From Candidatus Peribacteria bacterium (GTDB taxonomy: Bacteria > Patescibacteriota > Gracilibacteria > Peribacterales > Peribacteraceae): a DNA stretch of 64,000 nucleotides. The notes beneath the pieces were generated by a model. The model had not been told where the DNA came from. It searched no databases and saw only the letters and a list, made by a program, of their open reading frames with translations. How positions within the stretch are numbered: the first letter of the stretch is position 1; every line of letters begins with the position of its first letter. The stretch covers positions 6,818-70,817 of the forward strand of contig JABICL010000030.1 of the NCBI GenBank assembly GCA_018652265.1, in the 5' to 3' direction. A program made the translations under genes and the position numbers. This document shows, in pieces, positions 12-50,718 of the stretch.

Positions 12-2792
12 ATGACTAAATTCAAAAGAGCTGTAGAAGACATAGATTCTAGAGTCGAGGAACACGAGGAAAACTATGGATTTGGCGAGAAGACTGGATC
101 ATATGATTGGGCTTGGGCAGTATATATGCGTGAAGAAGGAAAAATTGTTTTAAACAAAGCAAAAATTGAATGGTATGCAAAAGAGGAAGGGGTTTCATAT
201 GAAGAAGCAAAAGATATAGTCCTCACAGAGGAAAAAGAACATGCCATAAACCATAATTACGCACTACACGTAAACTCCAGATTTTTCATAGATACATACG
301 AAAAAGTTGAAAATACTGATGCAGGACTAATGTTAGAAAGAGTTGGGAAAAAATGGGTAAGCGACGTAGGCCTCACAGATGGACAATGGAAAACAGAAGT
401 AGCAGATGAATTAATTGCAAAGAGAGTTTTGTATAACAAATACAAACATTTGATCCCAGATCATGATCACATTCCGAAACACATACCTCTATATTTGGAT
501 GATGTTCTTCTATTTAACAAATTAGATAGTCTAGGAATAGAAACTAGCCATGAAAAAAGTGAAGAATTGGAAGATAATTATAAATTAGAATTTGGAAGAG
601 TAGGTGCGCGGGCAGGAGGACAAAACGAAGAAGATGAAGAGAACAGAAGACTTATAGAACATCCATACGTAGAAGGAGGAGATGGATCTAATGGATACGA
701 AGATGCATCCTCTACTGCACGCGAAATACGTGATGCAGAAAATGCACTTGTAAAAATAAGAGGATTCTTCGAAACATATCCAGCTCAAGCAGGAGCTTCA
801 TCTGAAGAATCTGGTAAAACAAATAAGCAAGTATCAGATGAACTTGCAAAGGAATTTGCAGAAGTAAACAAAACATATCAATCAGAAACAAATCCAGAAA
901 GAATTGATTATCTAAAAGGAAAAATATCTAGAATAAGCGGAGCTCTTTTAACTATAACAGGGAAAATTTCTAAGTTTGATTCTGATCAAAGAGATTTGAG
1001 AGGCGCAGAAAAAAGATCACTTGGAATACGAGCAATATGGTGGGAAGTAGAATGGATGGGAATAAACGATATAGTCGCAATATTTAAATCCATTGGAGAA
1101 GATATAAAGCGTCAACATCAAAGAAGGCAGCAAGGAAGAATAGGAAGAGTTGGCGGAGCTTTAACCTCATGGATAGATAAAACTCCAATACTAAATGAAC
1201 TTCCTTATATAAGTACAGTTCCAGCAGAATTCCAACGTAGAGCAAAACAAGCAGAAGTAGATGAGGTAGAAAACTGGAAAAAAGCCCTTGTGGATCTCGA
1301 TTCATATGAACTTCAAGAAATGGCACGAAAACCAGCAAATAAAGATCAACTGAAAGCCATTTTAAATATTTTGGCAGAACGCGGAAGAATAGATTGGGCA
1401 GATACAGAACTTTGGGATGCCCTGAACAGATTCTCATATTACACAATGCCAAAGGAAGAATGTGAGAGGAATGAAAGTTTGCGAGAAGATTGGCTTAGAA
1501 AAGTTATAGGAGATGTATACGACGACAAAGATCACTACAGAGCATGGAAGACTCAAAACGACAGTTCTATCGAAAGCGAGAAAAAGAAATTTACAACAGA
1601 GGCAGATAGACTTAGTAATCTTTCTGGAGGACTTACTGGAGAGCTTTCAAAGCAACTTAGGATGTTCGAAGAAACTAAGGCAAGGGGCGAAAAAACGATG
1701 CCAGACGATGTGCATCCCCACATATACGAAGAAATTCTCGATTACTCTATAAGAAATGGAAAAATGAGCATGGAAGATAAATTCTATTATCTTGTTCGTG
1801 GAATAGCATCTGGTCTTATGAATAGAGATAGGCTTGGATATTTAGCTGGAGAAGGCGCTGGAGGACTTCTGAATATTTTCCCATTTATCGATTACTTCTA
1901 TGGCAAAAATAACACGATGCCGGAAATTCAAGCTCTGGCAAAAAGGCTTACGGAAGAGAGTGATCCAGCCAAAGATGGTCATTACAGGCCAGGAATTAAA
2001 ACCAGACTTTGGCTTGAGCTAGAAGTATCACGAGAACCACGTGTACAAGAACGTCTAAGAAAAGGAATAGATAGAAAAGCAGGAGAAATGGACCACGACG
2101 ATATGCACTTCTTTATACCTCGTTTGGACTTTCAAACTATCAGTGGAATGGCACTTCCACAGGGTGGTGGTAAACAAAAGATGAGTAATGATGGATGGAG
2201 AAATGCATATTCTGGATATAACTCTTTCTTTAAATCTCTTGGAATACTTTCAAAAATGGAGGAAGACAGAGTAGACGGAGCTAAATTTAGTGCAGAAGAT
2301 GCTTATCAGATAATCAAAGGTGTAGCAGGTTATGTTCGTATGGATAGCATACTTACTAAGCGTTCAAGTTTTAGTGATACAAAAGGACGTAGACCTTCAA
2401 TTAGTTTTGGTGAAATGAGAAATACTTATTCTGTAGCAAGCGGAGGAGAACATACCGTGTACGAAGATAGAGGTAAGGTTGATATATTTATAAGAAAAAT
2501 GCTAAAAGCATATGACTTCGAAGATGATTACATAGAAAAACTACTATTAGACACAGAAAGCAATCCGAATAGAGAAAAATCTGAACAAGATATGGCTGAA
2601 CAATTATCTGATGGATTAGAACATCACTTAGAAAAGGCCGTAAAAGAAAAGGGCATAGAAAGAATGAAAAATCTTCTAAAAGAAAGTATAGGAAATTTCA
2701 CAGAATCAGATGAAGAAGGTTACAATTACAATAATGCAAAGGAAATGTATAAAGAAAGTATAAAAGCAAAAAGAGAATTCACTAAAAGCTAA
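12..2792 (+). CDS. Large soluble hypothetical protein (926 aa) heading a unit with three T4SS-pilin-like genes
   Basis: Unbroken 2.8 kb ORF; its stop overlaps the next start (TAATG, 2790-2794); no hydrophobic segments and no catalytic motif I can name. Confidence 0.6.
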   Translation: MTKFKRAVEDIDSRVEEHEENYGFGEKTGSYDWAWAVYMREEGKIVLNKAKIEWYAKEEGVSYEEAKDIVLTEEKEHAINHNYALHVNSRFFIDTYEKVENTDAGLMLERVGKKWVSDVGLTDGQWKTEVADELIAKRVLYNKYKHLIPDHDHIPKHIPLYLDDVLLFNKLDSLGIETSHEKSEELEDNYKLEFGRVGARAGGQNEEDEENRRLIEHPYVEGGDGSNGYEDASSTAREIRDAENALVKIRGFFETYPAQAGASSEESGKTNKQVSDELAKEFAEVNKTYQSETNPERIDYLKGKISRISGALLTITGKISKFDSDQRDLRGAEKRSLGIRAIWWEVEWMGINDIVAIFKSIGEDIKRQHQRRQQGRIGRVGGALTSWIDKTPILNELPYISTVPAEFQRRAKQAEVDEVENWKKALVDLDSYELQEMARKPANKDQLKAILNILAERGRIDWADTELWDALNRFSYYTMPKEECERNESLREDWLRKVIGDVYDDKDHYRAWKTQNDSSIESEKKKFTTEADRLSNLSGGLTGELSKQLRMFEETKARGEKTMPDDVHPHIYEEILDYSIRNGKMSMEDKFYYLVRGIASGLMNRDRLGYLAGEGAGGLLNIFPFIDYFYGKNNTMPEIQALAKRLTEESDPAKDGHYRPGIKTRLWLELEVSREPRVQERLRKGIDRKAGEMDHDDMHFFIPRLDFQTISGMALPQGGGKQKMSNDGWRNAYSGYNSFFKSLGILSKMEEDRVDGAKFSAEDAYQIIKGVAGYVRMDSILTKRSSFSDTKGRRPSISFGEMRNTYSVASGGEHTVYEDRGKVDIFIRKMLKAYDFEDDYIEKLLLDTESNPNREKSEQDMAEQLSDGLEHHLEKAVKEKGIERMKNLLKESIGNFTESDEEGYNYNNAKEMYKESIKAKREFTKS

Positions 2793-46473: not shown

Positions 46474-47004
46474 TTAAGATTCTTTATTTTTTGCAACTTC
46501 GTTTACTGCTCTAGCAAAAGCACCAAGTGGACTTCCACACATGCTTGCAAAGTTTCCAAGAGGAGCACGAAGCATGGCTGCAAACTTCGAAAGTAATTCT
46601 TCTTTGCTAAGCATCTTCGCAAACTCTACTGCATCCTCTTTTGAAAGAAGCTTGCCATCTACAACTCCGCCAACGATTTCTACTGCATCATTTTTCTTGC
46701 CAAATTCAAATGCAACTTTGGCTCCACTTATTTCATCTTCGAAACTAAAAACAAAAGCAATTGGCTCATTGCCAAAAGCCTCATCAGAAACTTCTGGATA
46801 ACCCTCCTCTTTAGCTGCAATATTAAATAATGTTTTCTTGGCTACTTTCATTCTCGCATTCTTCTCCAACATCTTTCCTCTTAGATCATCAATATCAGAA
46901 ACACTAAGCCCACGATATTTCATGAAAGCGAGTGACTTTGTCTTCTTGATTGCATCTCTTATGTCTGCAACCTGTGCCTTTTTCTGATCTTTTGTAAGTG
47001 CCAT
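46474..47004 (-). CDS. rplJ: 50S ribosomal protein L10
   Basis: 176 aa, L10-like throughout; upstream of rplL. Confidence 0.92.
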
Positions 47005-47011
47005 ATTTACG

Positions 47012-47046
47012 AGTGGGTAGTGGTTAGTGGGTAGTGGTTAGTCACC
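47012..47046. repeat. Heptad block AGTGGNT x4 (+1), 8 nt upstream of the rplJ ATG
   Basis: agtgggt agtggtt agtgggt agtggtt agtcacc. Confidence 0.85.
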
Positions 47047-47097
47047 TCGCAACCGCAACAAATATCTTGATGATTCCAAATCCAGTGAAATTTTCTA

Positions 47098-47276
47098 ATA
47101 AAAAAACTGGTCTTCGGGACGTCCGGGAGACCAGCGAGGCACACGGCACGAATCAGTAAGCCAGAGCCGACTAGTCGATGCTGTATACCTCGGGAAGACT
47201 TACTTTCAGCCCTGCGGGCCTATCGCTTCCGGTCTTCGGACTGCGAGTATTCTACTTATATACACATCACTGTCAA
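47098..47276 (-). promoter_or_regulatory. Promoter, GC-rich structured leader and intrinsic terminator upstream of rplJL (L10-leader-like attenuator)
   Basis: TTGACA (47271-47276) -16 nt- TAGAAT (47249-47254); about 110 nt GC-rich leader; CTGGTCT..AGACCAG hairpin (47107-47133) + TTTTTTT. Confidence 0.6.
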
Positions 47277-47306
47277 GATATTTGTACAGAAACCCCAAAT
47301 AATTGC

Positions 47307-48032
47307 TCAAGAAGCCAAAATAGCGCCCACAAAGAATGCAAGCGCTGCACTTACAGCCCCAAGCACCAAAAGCTCCATTGCCCCAGAAAACTTCCTTCTT
47401 TTGGCAATTGACGATCTTACAATCCCCAGAGCAATCAAAGCCACTCCTGTAGACAAAATTGCGGTTTGAAATTTCAAATCAGATGAAACGCCAAAAATAT
47501 ACGGCACCAAAGGAATTGCACCGAAAATTACAAAAGATACAAAGGTAGCTGTGCCATGCAGCACAGGAAACTCAGTAATATCAGGCGTAAGACCGTGCTC
47601 CTCTCTCATCATAGTATCTATCCAGACATCTTCATCTGAAGTAATTTTATTTACCACCATCTCCAAATCCCCTCCTTCGAATCCTTTCTTTGCAAACATT
47701 TCCATAACCTCCTCTCTTTCTATCTCTGGAATTTCACGAATCTCTTTTCTCTCCTCCTCGTACAGTCGGTGGTAATTATCTCTTTCTGATTTTATAGAAA
47801 GATAATTTCCAATTCCCATAGAGAGTCCATCTGCAAACAAATTCGCAACTCCAAGAATTATGACTATATAGTGAGCAAGATCTGCTCCAGCAGCTCCTGC
47901 TACCACTGCAAAAGTAGTAACTATTCCATCTACACCTCCATAAACAATATCCTGCAAAAACTCCCCTAGTCTACTGCCATGGTAGTCAGCCTCCTTGTGT
48001 GCAAGTAACTTGGCGCTTGGCGAAAACCTCAT
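47307..48032 (-). CDS. VIT1/CCC1-family iron/manganese transporter
   Basis: 241 aa; [12 protein letters not shown] motif, cytosolic Glu-rich helix bundle, 5 TM; TACAAT 8 nt upstream of ATG. Confidence 0.8.
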
Positions 48033-48050
48033 GAATCTGAATTGTACACC

Positions 48051-48194
48051 TTGACACTAATTTTTGAAAAAGTAGTATGAGGTCAATGTTCGCAAGAACA
48101 CTCGCAGTTGGCCTCGTCGTCGCAGTCGTCCATTAGGACCGCACGAGTTTGCTAACTGAATATTCCAACCTCGTGCAAAACGAGGTTTTTTGTT
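48051..48194 (+). promoter_or_regulatory. Promoter, leaderless mini-ORF and terminator/antiterminator upstream of 48213..48467 and pcrA
   Basis: TTGACA (48051-48056) -16 nt- TAGTAT (48073-48078); GCACGAG (48141-48147) complementary to CTCGTGC (48170-48176), the 5-prime arm of terminator AACCTCG-tgcaaaa-CGAGGTT-TTTTTG (48167-48194). Confidence 0.65.
48086..48136 (+). CDS. Leaderless mini-ORF MFARTLAVGLVVAVVH (candidate leader peptide or small hydrophobic peptide)
   Basis: ATG 7 nt after the -10 box, the same spacing as 20+ genes here; stop codon 5 nt before the antiterminator strand. Confidence 0.5.
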   Translation: MFARTLAVGLVVAVVH

Positions 48195-48212
48195 TATTAC
48201 CAATTCATAATC

Positions 48213-48467
48213 ATGGGAATAGATCACATAAAAACGGAAGATGATCTCTCAAAGAGTCAACGAGATCTAATACTAGGATTGACTAATCCTTGCAATGGGA
48301 CAGTCTCGCCCGAAATTTTCTCTAACATAATGATTCGCATGCAAGCAGCTAGCGAAAAGGCTGGCAATGTCCTAGCTCTATGTGACTTAAAACATGTTGT
48401 AAAGAAGGTCACAGGAAAATCAGTATCACATAAACGAACAGATGGTACTATGAGTGCCGGTGAATAA
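48213..48467 (+). CDS. Hypothetical protein (84 aa)
   Basis: ORF overlapping the pcrA start by 14 nt. Confidence 0.5.
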   Translation: MGIDHIKTEDDLSKSQRDLILGLTNPCNGTVSPEIFSNIMIRMQAASEKAGNVLALCDLKHVVKKVTGKSVSHKRTDGTMSAGE

Positions 48468-50718
48468 AGATAGCAATTTAATTTTTGAAGGCCTAAACGA
48501 ATCGCAAACAAAAGCCGTAAACACTTTAAAGGGTCCTCTGCTGATCCTTGCAGGAGCTGGTAGCGGAAAGACTCGTACTCTCACGCATAGGATCGCAAAT
48601 CTGATTCATAACGGAGTAGAACCATGGAGAATACTTGCTGTCACTTTTACAAACAAAGCAGCGAATGAAATGAAAGACAGGATCAGCGCTCTTCTAAAGC
48701 TTACAAATGCAAACAGCGACAACATGCCTGCCACCGGCACATTTCACTCTATATGTGTTCGCATACTTAGAAGGGATATAGAAAAAATTGGAAGAGATAG
48801 AAACTTCGTGATCTACGATACTTCAGATCAAGAAACTCTTATGAAAGGAATACTGAAAGATATGAATATCGACTCAAAAGAACTAAAGCCAAAAGCAGCA
48901 CTTGGACAAGTTGGAAAATTTAAGAGTGAAGCAATGAATACAAAAGAAGTAGCAGAGCAAGCCACATCAGATTGGATGGCTAGGATGGTAAAAATTTATT
49001 CCACTTATCAAAATAAACTTAAAGAAAACAATGCATTGGACTTCGATGATCTTATTCTGGAATGTATAAGACTATTTCGCGAAGCTCCAGATGTATTAGA
49101 TAGATATCAAAACACATGGAAATATCTAAATGTAGATGAGTACCAAGATACAAATCATGCTCAATATATATTTATATCCATGCTTGCAGGTAAATATAGG
49201 AATCTGTGTGTAATAGGTGATCCAGATCAATCTATATACGCATTCCGTGGAGCAGACATAAGAAACATTTTGGAATTCAACGAAGAATACCCAGATGCAG
49301 TCTCCATAAAGCTGGAACGCAATTACAGATCAACTCAACAAATACTAGATTCATCCGATGCAGTAATTGCAGCAAATCCAGGAAGACCACAAAAGAAAAT
49401 GTGGACGCATAGAGCAGATGGAAACTTATTATCTATTCACGAAGTGAGAGACGAAAAAGATGAAGCAGAAGAAACTGTGAATAATGTTATGAGCAAACTC
49501 GCAAATGGCACATCACTAAACGAACAAGTGGTGCTATACAGAACAAATGCACAATCCAGACATTTCGAAGAAGCTTGTATGCGAAATGCACTTCCCTACC
49601 GGATAGTAGGAGGAGTGAAGTTCTACGCTAGAAGAGAAGTAAAAGATCTTCTCGCATATTTATATGCAATGCATAACCCCCAAGACGCTTTATCTCTACT
49701 TCGAGTAATAAATGTTCCTGCTAGGAAAATTGGTAAGACAACTATAGAAAAAATAAATGCATTTTGTCAGGAGCATGAGATGTCATTTTGGTCTGCCCTA
49801 AAAAATATTAATTCCATAGATCATATAAATGAATCAACTAAAAATCGAATCTCTGAATTTGCTGCACTCATAGAAAAATATAAAGAAAGAAGATTACAAA
49901 TTTCTGTATCTCAGCTTTCCACAGAATTATTAGAAGAAATACAAATGGAAAAATGGTTAAGGGATGACACAACAGAAGGAGAAACTAGATGGGAAAATAT
50001 AGGAGAACTTATAAACGTAATGCATAAGTACGATGGCCTTGAGTCTGAACAATCCTTTGTGAGTTTTCTAGAAGAAGTAGCACTAGTATCTGAAGTAGAC
50101 AAAATGAATGACGCACGTGATGATGCTCTTACTTTGATGACTCTTCATCTGTGCAAAGGTCTGGAATTTGGCCATGTAGTAATTGCAGGATGCGAAGAAG
50201 GAATCTTCCCTCATTCAAATTGCATGTTCGACAAAGAACAATTAGAAGAAGAGCGTCGTATTATGTATGTAGGAATGACCAGAGCAAAAGATCAACTTAC
50301 TCTAATGCACGCAAATAGCAGAACTGTATGGGGTGATATGCAAGCAAACTCTGCATCTCGCTTCTTAGACGACATTCCGGAAAAGCTTGTAGAGAGAAAG
50401 GGAGATATATTTAGTAGAATGCAACTCTCCTCGAGCGGGCTCTCCTCGACCGAGCGTCGCAACGCGAGTGGAGAGGCATCGCGAACGTCGAGAGGTTTAT
50501 CGGATCTAGATTTCAACCAAGACATAAACTCTTCAGAAGAAGACTTCAATCAGGATCCTTCTCATGATTTTGAATCCGGTGCTCGCATACATCATCCTAT
50601 ATTTGGCGATGGAACTATTATGTCTTTGAGTGGTGACATAGCAGAGATACGATTCGATTCCGGAAATGTAAAAAAGATTGCCTTAAACGTTGTGAAGGTT
50701 GAGGTGATTCAGAAATAG
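48454..50718 (+). CDS. pcrA: ATP-dependent DNA helicase PcrA/UvrD
   Basis: GAGSGKTRT Walker A, DEYQDT, full SF1 motif set, C-terminal HHPIFGDGTI.. tail domain; repeat C copy 2 in-frame near the C-terminus. Confidence 0.92.
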   Translation: MPVNKDSNLIFEGLNESQTKAVNTLKGPLLILAGAGSGKTRTLTHRIANLIHNGVEPWRILAVTFTNKAANEMKDRISALLKLTNANSDNMPATGTFHSICVRILRRDIEKIGRDRNFVIYDTSDQETLMKGILKDMNIDSKELKPKAALGQVGKFKSEAMNTKEVAEQATSDWMARMVKIYSTYQNKLKENNALDFDDLILECIRLFREAPDVLDRYQNTWKYLNVDEYQDTNHAQYIFISMLAGKYRNLCVIGDPDQSIYAFRGADIRNILEFNEEYPDAVSIKLERNYRSTQQILDSSDAVIAANPGRPQKKMWTHRADGNLLSIHEVRDEKDEAEETVNNVMSKLANGTSLNEQVVLYRTNAQSRHFEEACMRNALPYRIVGGVKFYARREVKDLLAYLYAMHNPQDALSLLRVINVPARKIGKTTIEKINAFCQEHEMSFWSALKNINSIDHINESTKNRISEFAALIEKYKERRLQISVSQLSTELLEEIQMEKWLRDDTTEGETRWENIGELINVMHKYDGLESEQSFVSFLEEVALVSEVDKMNDARDDALTLMTLHLCKGLEFGHVVIAGCEEGIFPHSNCMFDKEQLEEERRIMYVGMTRAKDQLTLMHANSRTVWGDMQANSASRFLDDIPEKLVERKGDIFSRMQLSSSGLSSTERRNASGEASRTSRGLSDLDFNQDINSSEEDFNQDPSHDFESGARIHHPIFGDGTIMSLSGDIAEIRFDSGNVKKIALNVVKVEVIQK
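50424..50495 (+). repeat. Repeat family C, copy 2 (partial, in-frame in pcrA)
   Basis: ctctcctcgagcgggctctcctcgaccgagcgtcgcaacgcgagtggagagg..cgtcgagagg; encodes LSSSGLSSTERRNASGEASRTSRG. Confidence 0.85.

Follow-up and report, generated by a model that had tools for sequence, protein, structure and literature searches.

A predicted leaderless, valine-rich leader-peptide attenuator in front of the pcrA operon of Candidatus Peribacteria

We analyzed a 64,000-nucleotide stretch of DNA from a Candidatus Peribacteria bacterium (GenBank assembly GCA_018652265.1, contig JABICL010000030.1, positions 6,818 to 70,817; hereafter, the window) and, in particular, a short element that occupies the 180-nucleotide (nt) intergenic gap between a VIT1-family gene and an 84-amino-acid (aa) open reading frame (ORF) followed by the helicase gene pcrA. 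Judging from its sequence and evolution, this element is very probably a leaderless version of the trp/ilv-type transcription attenuator, which is ribosome-mediated and acts via a leader peptide. This conclusion is supported by the anatomy of the element, the conservation of its ORF, spacing, and stop codon among relatives, the covariation of both alternative pairings, the way in which the nascent RNA is predicted to fold, the frequency of leaderless genes in the host genome, and the match, in paralogous copies, between the composition of the leader peptide and the downstream genes (hereafter, the cargo). It bears out the original prediction, made from the DNA alone, of a leaderless Val-rich attenuator preceding the pcrA operon.

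Anatomy of the leader element

The gap houses the whole element, which consists of a sigma-70-type promoter, a leaderless 16-codon ORF, an antiterminator strand just past the stop codon, and an intrinsic terminator (Table 1); the promoter, Val-rich mini-ORF, GCACGAG motif, and terminator of the original prediction were each found exactly where it had placed them. Among the last 11 codons of the leader ORF, 5 encode Val and 2 encode Leu. By our own arithmetic, a 7-mer complementary to one given terminator arm would be expected by chance only ~0.002 times within ~25 positions. The T-run of the terminator ends 21 nt short of ATG 48213, and a consensus scan of positions 47000-49000 detected no plus-strand promoter-like site other than the leader promoter, in agreement with the earlier observation that no promoter is evident between the terminator and this ATG. 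The predicted 117-nt transcript folds into three hairpins (-37.7 kcal/mol, z = -3.2), and none of 200 shuffled sequences folds as well. A hairpin comparable to the 5'-terminal one, which could influence the loading of the leaderless mRNA or its stability, is present in the minimum free energy (MFE) folds of about half of 21 homologs.

Table 1. Features of the leader element and of the genes that flank it (window coordinates)
Feature	Position	Strand	Description
Sigma-70-type promoter	48051..48078	+	TTGACA 48051-48056, 16-nt spacer, TAGTAT 48073-48078; consensus scan score 10/12
Leaderless 16-codon leader ORF	48086..48136	+	MFARTLAVGLVVAVVH; ATG 48086, 7 nt past the -10 box; TAG 48134-48136
5'-terminal hairpin	48087..48100	+	UGUUC-GCAA-GAACA; predicted fold; takes in the UG of the start codon
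Hairpin 1:2	48105..48158	+	Predicted fold; pairing of region 1 (48105-48131, within the ORF and containing the Val codons) with region 2 (48136-48158)
Regulatory codons	48113-48130	+	CTC GTC GTC GCA GTC GTC, inside the leader ORF
Region 2 core (antiterminator strand)	48141..48147	+	GCACGAG; starts at the fifth base past the stop codon; exact complement of CTCGTGC 48170-48176
Intrinsic terminator (regions 3/4)	48167..48191	+	AACCTCGT (48167-48174) / ACGAGGTT (48180-48187), loop GCAAA, T6 48186-48191
84-aa ORF, first controlled gene	48213..48467	+	CU-rich leader, no Shine-Dalgarno sequence; overlaps the pcrA start
pcrA/uvrD-type helicase gene, last gene of the operon	48454..50718	+	UvrD-helicase 4.8e-94, UvrD_C 9.4e-71
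VIT1-family gene	47307..48032	-	Leaderless-looking; TACAAT 48046-48041, 8 nt before ATG 48032

The sequence of the element is identical in nine other public assemblies; this lack of differences indicates that it is not an assembly artefact and, at the same time, makes these assemblies uninformative on strain-level variation. No Rfam family, including Leu_leader, Thr_leader, His_leader, and Trp_leader, matched positions 47900-48400 at E-values up to 10, and no Rfam leader family reached the gathering score anywhere in the window.

Leaderless, Shine-Dalgarno-free initiation appears, from sequence, to be the rule in the host genome (1.07 Mb, 38% GC, 48 contigs, rated 100% complete). Among its long ORFs (at least 80 aa), 32 start 6-10 nt past a -10 box, versus ~1-2 at most other distances, and the genes downstream of the element have CU-rich leaders without a Shine-Dalgarno sequence. 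Codon choice in the leader is equally distinctive. GTC is the rarest Val codon of the host genome (6% of Val codons) and CTC accounts for 8% of its Leu codons, but GTC fills four of the five Val positions of the window leader (P = 6e-5), CTC is used twice, and, in all leaders pooled, 147 of 172 Val codons (85%) are GTC. A single tRNA-Val(GAC) gene is present in the host genome. The retention of the rare GTC and CTC codons suggests that the leader sequence is held by RNA pairing, isoacceptor-specific sensing, or both; rare regulatory codons are a known trait of classical attenuators, such as CUA in the leu leader.

Conservation of the element among Peribacteria

A plain BLAST search with the 176-nt region against 60 relatives yielded no match. 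Inspection of the regions upstream of pcrA in 29 genera of the family (57-68% PcrA identity) revealed the same arrangement at the loci of five of them, namely, a TTGAC(A/T) promoter, a start codon 8-10 nt past the -10 box, an ORF of 17-20 codons (e.g., MQMSCTIVSLVLVVVPLG and MYQHRVIVSLVLLVVLKG), a stop codon that abuts GCGCGAG, and the terminator CCTCGCGCAAGCGGGG followed by a T-run. Covariance models (R1, then R2) built from upstream-of-pcrA homologs were run against 200 genomes from 84 genera of the family (Candidatus Peribacteria/Peregrinibacteria) and detected the element in 42 of these genomes, belonging to 22 genera, so that the mini-ORF, which the original prediction had proposed to seek upstream of pcrA in relatives, is indeed present there. 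In the collection of named genomes, the closest PcrA loci (57-62% identity), including that of Peribacter UBA2144, lack the element, and a scan of the host genome for additional units of a leaderless mini-ORF and a terminator found only the pcrA-leader copy convincing.

Because the terminator hairpin is generic in the family, weak model matches that contained nothing else were discarded, which left 52 copies. In many family genomes (e.g., at loci L071, L077, L078, and L081), the hairpin CCCCGCGCAAGCGGGG, with a GCAA tetraloop and a trailing T-run, recurs nearly verbatim as a terminator behind unrelated genes, such as groEL, and this reuse accounts for the false matches. The true matches are more than a generic terminator, given that each of them also has a promoter, a mini-ORF, and region 2. 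Of the 52 copies, 46 have a promoter of the form TTGnnn-16..18-TAnnnT that is followed at a distance of 5-12 nt (mode 9) by a start codon, which is ATG in 41 of them.

The leader ORFs of the homologs are 15-21 codons long (mode 18) and follow the pattern M-x(3-7, basic)-[ILV][IV][SG]L[VL][LV]VVV-P-x-x-stop, with VVV or VVVVV runs, such that Val-type leaders keep three to five Val codons in the run. The reading frame, the start position, and the stop position are conserved, whereas the 5' third of the sequence is not, and the stop codon is always set against region 2. This pattern of conservation suggests that the leader ORF is translated. A Pfam search with two 20-residue homologous leader peptides gave no match.

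Some copies depart from the common layout. At three loci of one genus (L178, L179, and L181), the hydrophobic run is interrupted midway by an in-frame insert (..SLACPELVERVLVVVPQG), which extends the ORF to 25-26 codons, and at L037, two Val-type copies are arranged in tandem. At L025 (~470-610 nt upstream of pcrA) and L033 (~380-490 nt upstream), a second, different leaderless mini-ORF with a terminator lies between the first and second small ORFs; the peptides it encodes, MHRPAAMPAPKYFNTKNR and MHRFVAMIAKNNSDTTKR, are not hydrophobic and show no obvious amino acid run.

Leader composition matches the cargo

In several genomes, a second copy of the element, recognized by the same covariance model, is located elsewhere and encodes an Ile-rich leader peptide, with AUC or AUU as the Ile codons (e.g., MKRSIIIRSIIITRAPRR, MASHQIISSIIITPLRKA, MAQSLMIISMIIISATKA, MQRRAIIANIIIITPTTA, and MTHRSIIISIIIASRPRR). 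The two leader types partition sharply by cargo (Fisher p = 1e-8). Ten of the 12 Ile-type copies precede Ile genes, and none precedes pcrA or valS; the 36 Val-type copies include 32 located before one or more small ORFs and pcrA, one before valS, and none before Ile genes. The cargo of the Ile-type copies includes a citramalate synthase (TIGR00977, 460 bits, cut-off 450), a LeuA-like synthase with a score below the curated cut-off, and an IlvA-like threonine dehydratase (403 bits, just under the cut-off of 421), all of which belong to isoleucine-synthesis pathways. The paralogs resemble the window copy in the spacing between promoter and start codon, ORF length, hairpin 1:2, region 2, and the terminator, and differ from it in their Ile-rich leaders, Ile-pathway cargo, and an antiterminator that pairs in another register. 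Such cargo-matched composition is expected of an amino acid sensor and not of a functional hydrophobic peptide or a non-coding RNA, and this match is decisive.

The exception among the Val-type copies is found in genome G178 (L203/L205), where the leader MILRSISLALVVVVVTP directly precedes a 227-aa ORF and valS, the gene for valine-tRNA ligase (853 bits). The element was found before valS at only this one of 30 loci, being absent from eight close relatives in the genus of G178 and from 21 loci of other genera, so that the G178 copy is probably a recent rearrangement. The idea that the Val-type element is a displaced valS regulator was rejected, given that only G178 carries such a copy among the 30 loci. 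Across the family genomes, valS is usually located 7-13 kb from pcrA in the opposite transcription direction, and pcrA, valS, and the RelA/SpoT gene lie within ~20 kb of one another in many of them; in the host genome, valS is on another contig (C34). Thus, the regulatory codons correspond to the amino acid of the controlled genes in the Ile-type paralogs and in the valS copy, but not in the window.

Covariation and folding of the alternative RNA structures

Covariation was assessed on two alignments, A4, which contains 21 Val-type sequences, and A5, which contains 52 sequences of the Val and Ile types mixed. In the terminated fold (pairings 1:2 and 3:4), 86-88% of the cells are paired on A4 and A5, compared with only 35-50% in slid controls, and 13 of 23 pairs (A4) or 21 of 23 pairs (A5) have changed on both sides, a level reached by none of 500 shuffles. 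The terminator stem itself is 92-93% paired in the homologs and covaries. The antiterminator pairing 2:3 was not used in building the alignments; nevertheless, on fixed columns of A4, 85% of its cells are paired and five of seven pairs have changed on both sides (1 of 500 shuffles). A register-free swap test gave a mean binding energy of -14.1 kcal/mol for region 2 with the region 3 of the same copy, versus -11.5 kcal/mol for swapped partners (0 of 5000 permutations). Compensated region 2/region 3 pairs are also apparent by eye: GCGAGGUGA/UCACCUCGC, GCGAGGCU/AGCCUCGC, GCGAAGUG/CACUUCGC, and, in the window, GCACGAG/CUCGUGC. The mutually exclusive pairings 1:2, 2:3, and 3:4 have thus been kept in evolution, with a weaker signal on the mixed alignment.

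To simulate the effect of a ribosome, nascent RNA ending short of the terminator's 3' arm was folded with a mask that extended up to 13 nt beyond the A site. In the window copy, the terminator arm is predicted to be unpaired in the absence of a ribosome, bound by region 2 with the A site anywhere on codons 3-15, and unpaired once more when the ribosome is at the stop codon. When the stop-to-arm segment, which holds region 2, was shuffled 100 times, the arm was paired in 25% of cases. The predicted behavior of the window copy reproduces the switch initially envisaged, in which a ribosome at the stop codon covers the antiterminator strand and a stalled one exposes it. The placement of the stop codon is such that a terminating ribosome would mask segment 2 and an upstream stall would free it.

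Contrary evidence and alternative explanations

Several observations weigh against this interpretation. Both alignments were fitted to the structure of the covariance model and hence favor that structure. The fixed-column covariation of the 2:3 pairing is weak on the mixed alignment (73% paired, a value reached by 61 of 500 shuffles), a result explained by the Ile-type copies pairing in another register. Over 50 copies, the simulation gave the expected behavior in 36 for the stall and in 39 for the stop codon; the observed pairing of the arm is 68%, compared with 33% of the trials with shuffled controls. Moreover, when the full-length window RNA is folded to its MFE structure with a ribosome mask, the terminator is kept at nearly every ribosome position, so that the switch must be kinetic, as in the trp attenuator. 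On the biological side, no Val/Ile biosynthesis genes, including cimA and ilvA, were detected in the host genome with the probes used, and the cargo, a small ORF and pcrA, has no known link to valine. Finally, the site of transcription initiation, the terminated transcript, and read-through are all predicted from sequence.

The lack of a known valine connection brings up the possibility that the same hardware responds not to valine supply but to ribosome stalling or slow translation in general, whether caused by any amino acid shortage, inhibitors, or poor leaderless loading, with read-through raising PcrA when transcription and translation uncouple. Leader-ORF attenuators that respond to ribosome-targeting antibiotics were reportedly described by Dar et al. 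in 2016, and a generic signal would fit a helicase cargo that is not valine-related, a host genome devoid of cimA/ilvA-type genes, and the rarity of the element at the valS loci (1 of 30). However, the sister copies are amino acid-specific, being Ile-rich before Ile genes, and the run of three to five Val residues with 85% GTC is what an isoacceptor-specific sensor would need and exceeds the need of a generic stall sensor. On balance, we consider a purely generic signal unlikely.

Two further alternatives dispense with attenuation altogether. The original prediction had itself offered the reading of an independent transcript of ~115 nt for a small type I toxin-like peptide. Under this scenario, a terminated RNA of ~105 nt would encode a 16-residue hydrophobic peptide, either such a toxin or a membrane micro-protein, and downstream read-through would be incidental, as could be suggested by the conserved hydrophobic character of the peptide and by its own strong promoter and terminator. 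Yet, the Val/Ile composition changes in exact step with the downstream gene, a behavior not expected of a membrane peptide; rare GTC is retained at 38% GC; the stop codon always faces region 2, which covaries with the terminator arm; 32 of the 36 Val-type copies are tied to the pcrA operon; and no antisense partner is evident, the minus-strand promoter-like sites belonging solely to the divergent VIT1 gene. Besides, type I toxins are typically longer than the 15-21 residues of these peptides. This reading was accordingly set aside as very improbable. Just as little credence can be given to a small RNA without coding function, or to a divergent housekeeping RNA like that of the signal recognition particle (SRP), in either of which the AUG and the open frame would be incidental. 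A promoter, ~105 structured nt, and a terminator would suit such an RNA, as would the lack of a detectable SRP RNA in the host genome, but there is no Rfam match even at E-values up to 10, the frame, start, and stop are conserved while the 5' third is not, and the peptide composition tracks the cargo. These observations leave the amino acid-sensing attenuator as the preferred explanation.

Two specific hypotheses on the role of the element were also rejected. A divergent SRP (4.5S) RNA is contradicted by the lack of an RF00169 or RF01854 match and of domain IV features, by the conserved frame, and by the absence of Ffh and FtsY. An attenuator that replaces a missing stringent response is contradicted by the presence of RelA/SpoT homologs in all 21 genomes tested.

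The controlled operon and its surroundings

The controlled operon starts with the 84-aa ORF and ends with pcrA (Table 1). The 84-aa ORF was called as a gene in the nine other assemblies, its product belongs to no Pfam family, and a search of 5.8 billion proteins retrieved no homolog but the protein itself; pcrA was identified by its UvrD-helicase and UvrD_C domains. The original statement that the cargo is an ORF of this kind followed by pcrA, rather than amino acid biosynthesis genes, therefore holds.

In the Val-type copies, one to three small ORFs (70-140 aa) begin 16-60 nt after the terminator and are followed by pcrA. The small proteins are fast-evolving, linked to one another by chains of weak similarity, and show no Pfam family. 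Two families of them always accompany pcrA at loci L054-L204. Members of the first (~70-90 aa) contain ..GGYRIQYQ..NGS..R(I/V)TVTE.. or ..FAEPNYGGTWTVFR.., with a motif of the form G-aromatic ... R(I/V) and a helix at the C-terminus, and members of the second (~90-120 aa) end in GS(D/G)TMP(Q/E) right at the pcrA start. On the other side of the gap, the divergent VIT1-family gene also looks leaderless, and its promoter and that of the leader are placed back to back and overlap.

Apparent absence of the SRP pathway

A separate observation concerns protein targeting: the whole SRP pathway is seemingly missing from the host genome and from 60 genomes of the same class. In the host genome, rated complete, there was no RF00169 or RF01854 match to SRP RNA, and neither the Ffh M domain (PF02978) nor the SRP54-type GTPase domain of Ffh/FtsY (PF00448) was found. 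Across 61 genomes from 24 families of the class, PF00448 yielded only matches of at most 23 bits, resembling generic P-loop similarity; the search controls were positive in 14 of 14 genomes, and neither tblastn with E. coli Ffh nor a motif scan produced a match. Given the absence of Ffh and FtsY, no SRP RNA is expected in the host genome. We found no paper on SRP loss in this lineage.

Discussion

The evidence presented above is consistent with the following mechanism. Transcription would start at or next to A48086, so that the RNA begins with the AUG of the 16-codon ORF, allowing a 70S ribosome to load once the 5' end emerges. Region 1 (CUC GUC GUC GCA GUC GUC) could pair with region 2, centered on GCACGAG past the stop codon; region 2 could alternatively engage region 3 (CUCGUGC), which is the terminator's 5' arm; and region 3 would pair with region 4 to form the terminator, followed by U6. 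A ribosome that reaches the UAG would mask region 2, permitting 3:4 to form and transcription to stop at ~48191. With no ribosome loaded, 1:2 would form, then 3:4, with the same outcome. A ribosome stalled on the rare GUC or CUC codons would cover region 1 and leave region 2 free, in which case 2:3 would pre-empt the terminator and transcription would read through into the 84-aa ORF and pcrA. Stalling would presumably result from scarcity of Val-tRNA, given the single gene for tRNA-Val (GAC), and read-through would raise the level of PcrA. In addition, the released leader RNA or peptide could act in trans, as rnTrpL of Sinorhizobium does (PMC6614838); a trans role of the RNA would add to attenuation rather than replace it.

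Why a helicase should be controlled in this manner can be suggested only tentatively. PcrA, as far as the biology of UvrD/PcrA helicases goes, removes RNA polymerase and R-loops and resolves transcription-replication conflicts. The switch might tie this genome-maintenance helicase to the state of translation, such that a lag on Val codons, caused by valine shortage or by any slowing, induces PcrA along with its small partner protein or proteins, a proposal to which we attach limited confidence. By analogy with UvrD/PcrA helicases in general, a rise in PcrA when translation lags might serve to handle uncoupled RNA polymerase and R-loops. E. coli uvrD was reportedly placed under control of LexA and attenuation by Easton and Kushner in 1983, and a leader terminator is said to limit expression of this UvrD/PcrA-family helicase there, which we take as a lead only; to our knowledge, neither a leader peptide nor amino acid sensing is involved in that case.

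The element has clear counterparts among the classical attenuators. Like the enterobacterial ilvL (ilvGMEDA) and ivbL (ilvBN) leaders, it combines a short leader ORF containing runs of Val/Leu/Ile codons with a stop codon that would let the terminating ribosome mask segment 2 and with an intrinsic terminator before the structural genes, and its four segments and the pairings 1:2, 2:3, and 3:4 are those of the trp attenuator model. The leader peptide resembles even the R-(I/V)-(I/V)-S-L-V.. pattern of the ilvL peptide (..RVISLVVISVVVIII..). In contrast to the enterobacterial leaders, the Peribacteria element matches no Rfam leader family, two homologous leader peptides of 20 residues match no Pfam family, its ORF is leaderless rather than led by a Shine-Dalgarno sequence, and its cargo is a small ORF with the pcrA helicase gene instead of ilv genes, in a bacterium of the candidate phyla radiation (CPR) with a genome of ~1 Mb.

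Leaderless forms are known from Actinobacteria. Mycobacterial polycysteine small ORFs are leaderless and have been described as attenuating operonic expression (bioRxiv 10.1101/834739), and the ilvBNC attenuator of Corynebacterium glutamicum has a leaderless leader peptide (PMC11857589). As predicted for the window, the RNA in these cases starts at the start codon of a regulatory small ORF, which serves as the first cistron and as the sensor of a single amino acid; furthermore, in mycobacteria, one mRNA in four is leaderless, and leaderless genes are also frequent in the host genome of the window. The actinobacterial cases differ in that they come from another phylum, have no known sequence relationship to the Peribacteria element, and control genes for the sensed amino acid, whereas the window copy controls pcrA. 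We found no paper on ribosome-mediated attenuation in the CPR, on attenuators in Peregrinibacteria, or on a link between pcrA and a leader peptide. Thus, the mechanism is classical, and its leaderless form is already known from Actinobacteria; what is new is the lineage and the helicase-operon cargo.

The element provides a well-supported case of ribosome-mediated attenuation in the CPR, in an organism with many leaderless mRNAs and no use of Shine-Dalgarno sequences. Because a single family with the same hardware includes Ile-sensing copies on Ile-pathway genes and Val-type copies on the pcrA operon, it constitutes a natural experiment on the change of specificity and cargo. There is also a lesson for annotation, namely, that ORFs of 16-20 codons at the 5' ends of CPR operons should not be overlooked. 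A sensor of amino acids or of stalled ribosomes ahead of the gene for an essential-type DNA helicase is unexpected and points to a possible link between translation status and PcrA dosage, as well as to two fast-evolving small-protein families in the pcrA operon. If such a link is real, it would represent a hard-wired connection, conserved in more than 20 genera of Peribacteria, between the uncoupling of ribosome and RNA polymerase and the resolution of conflicts.

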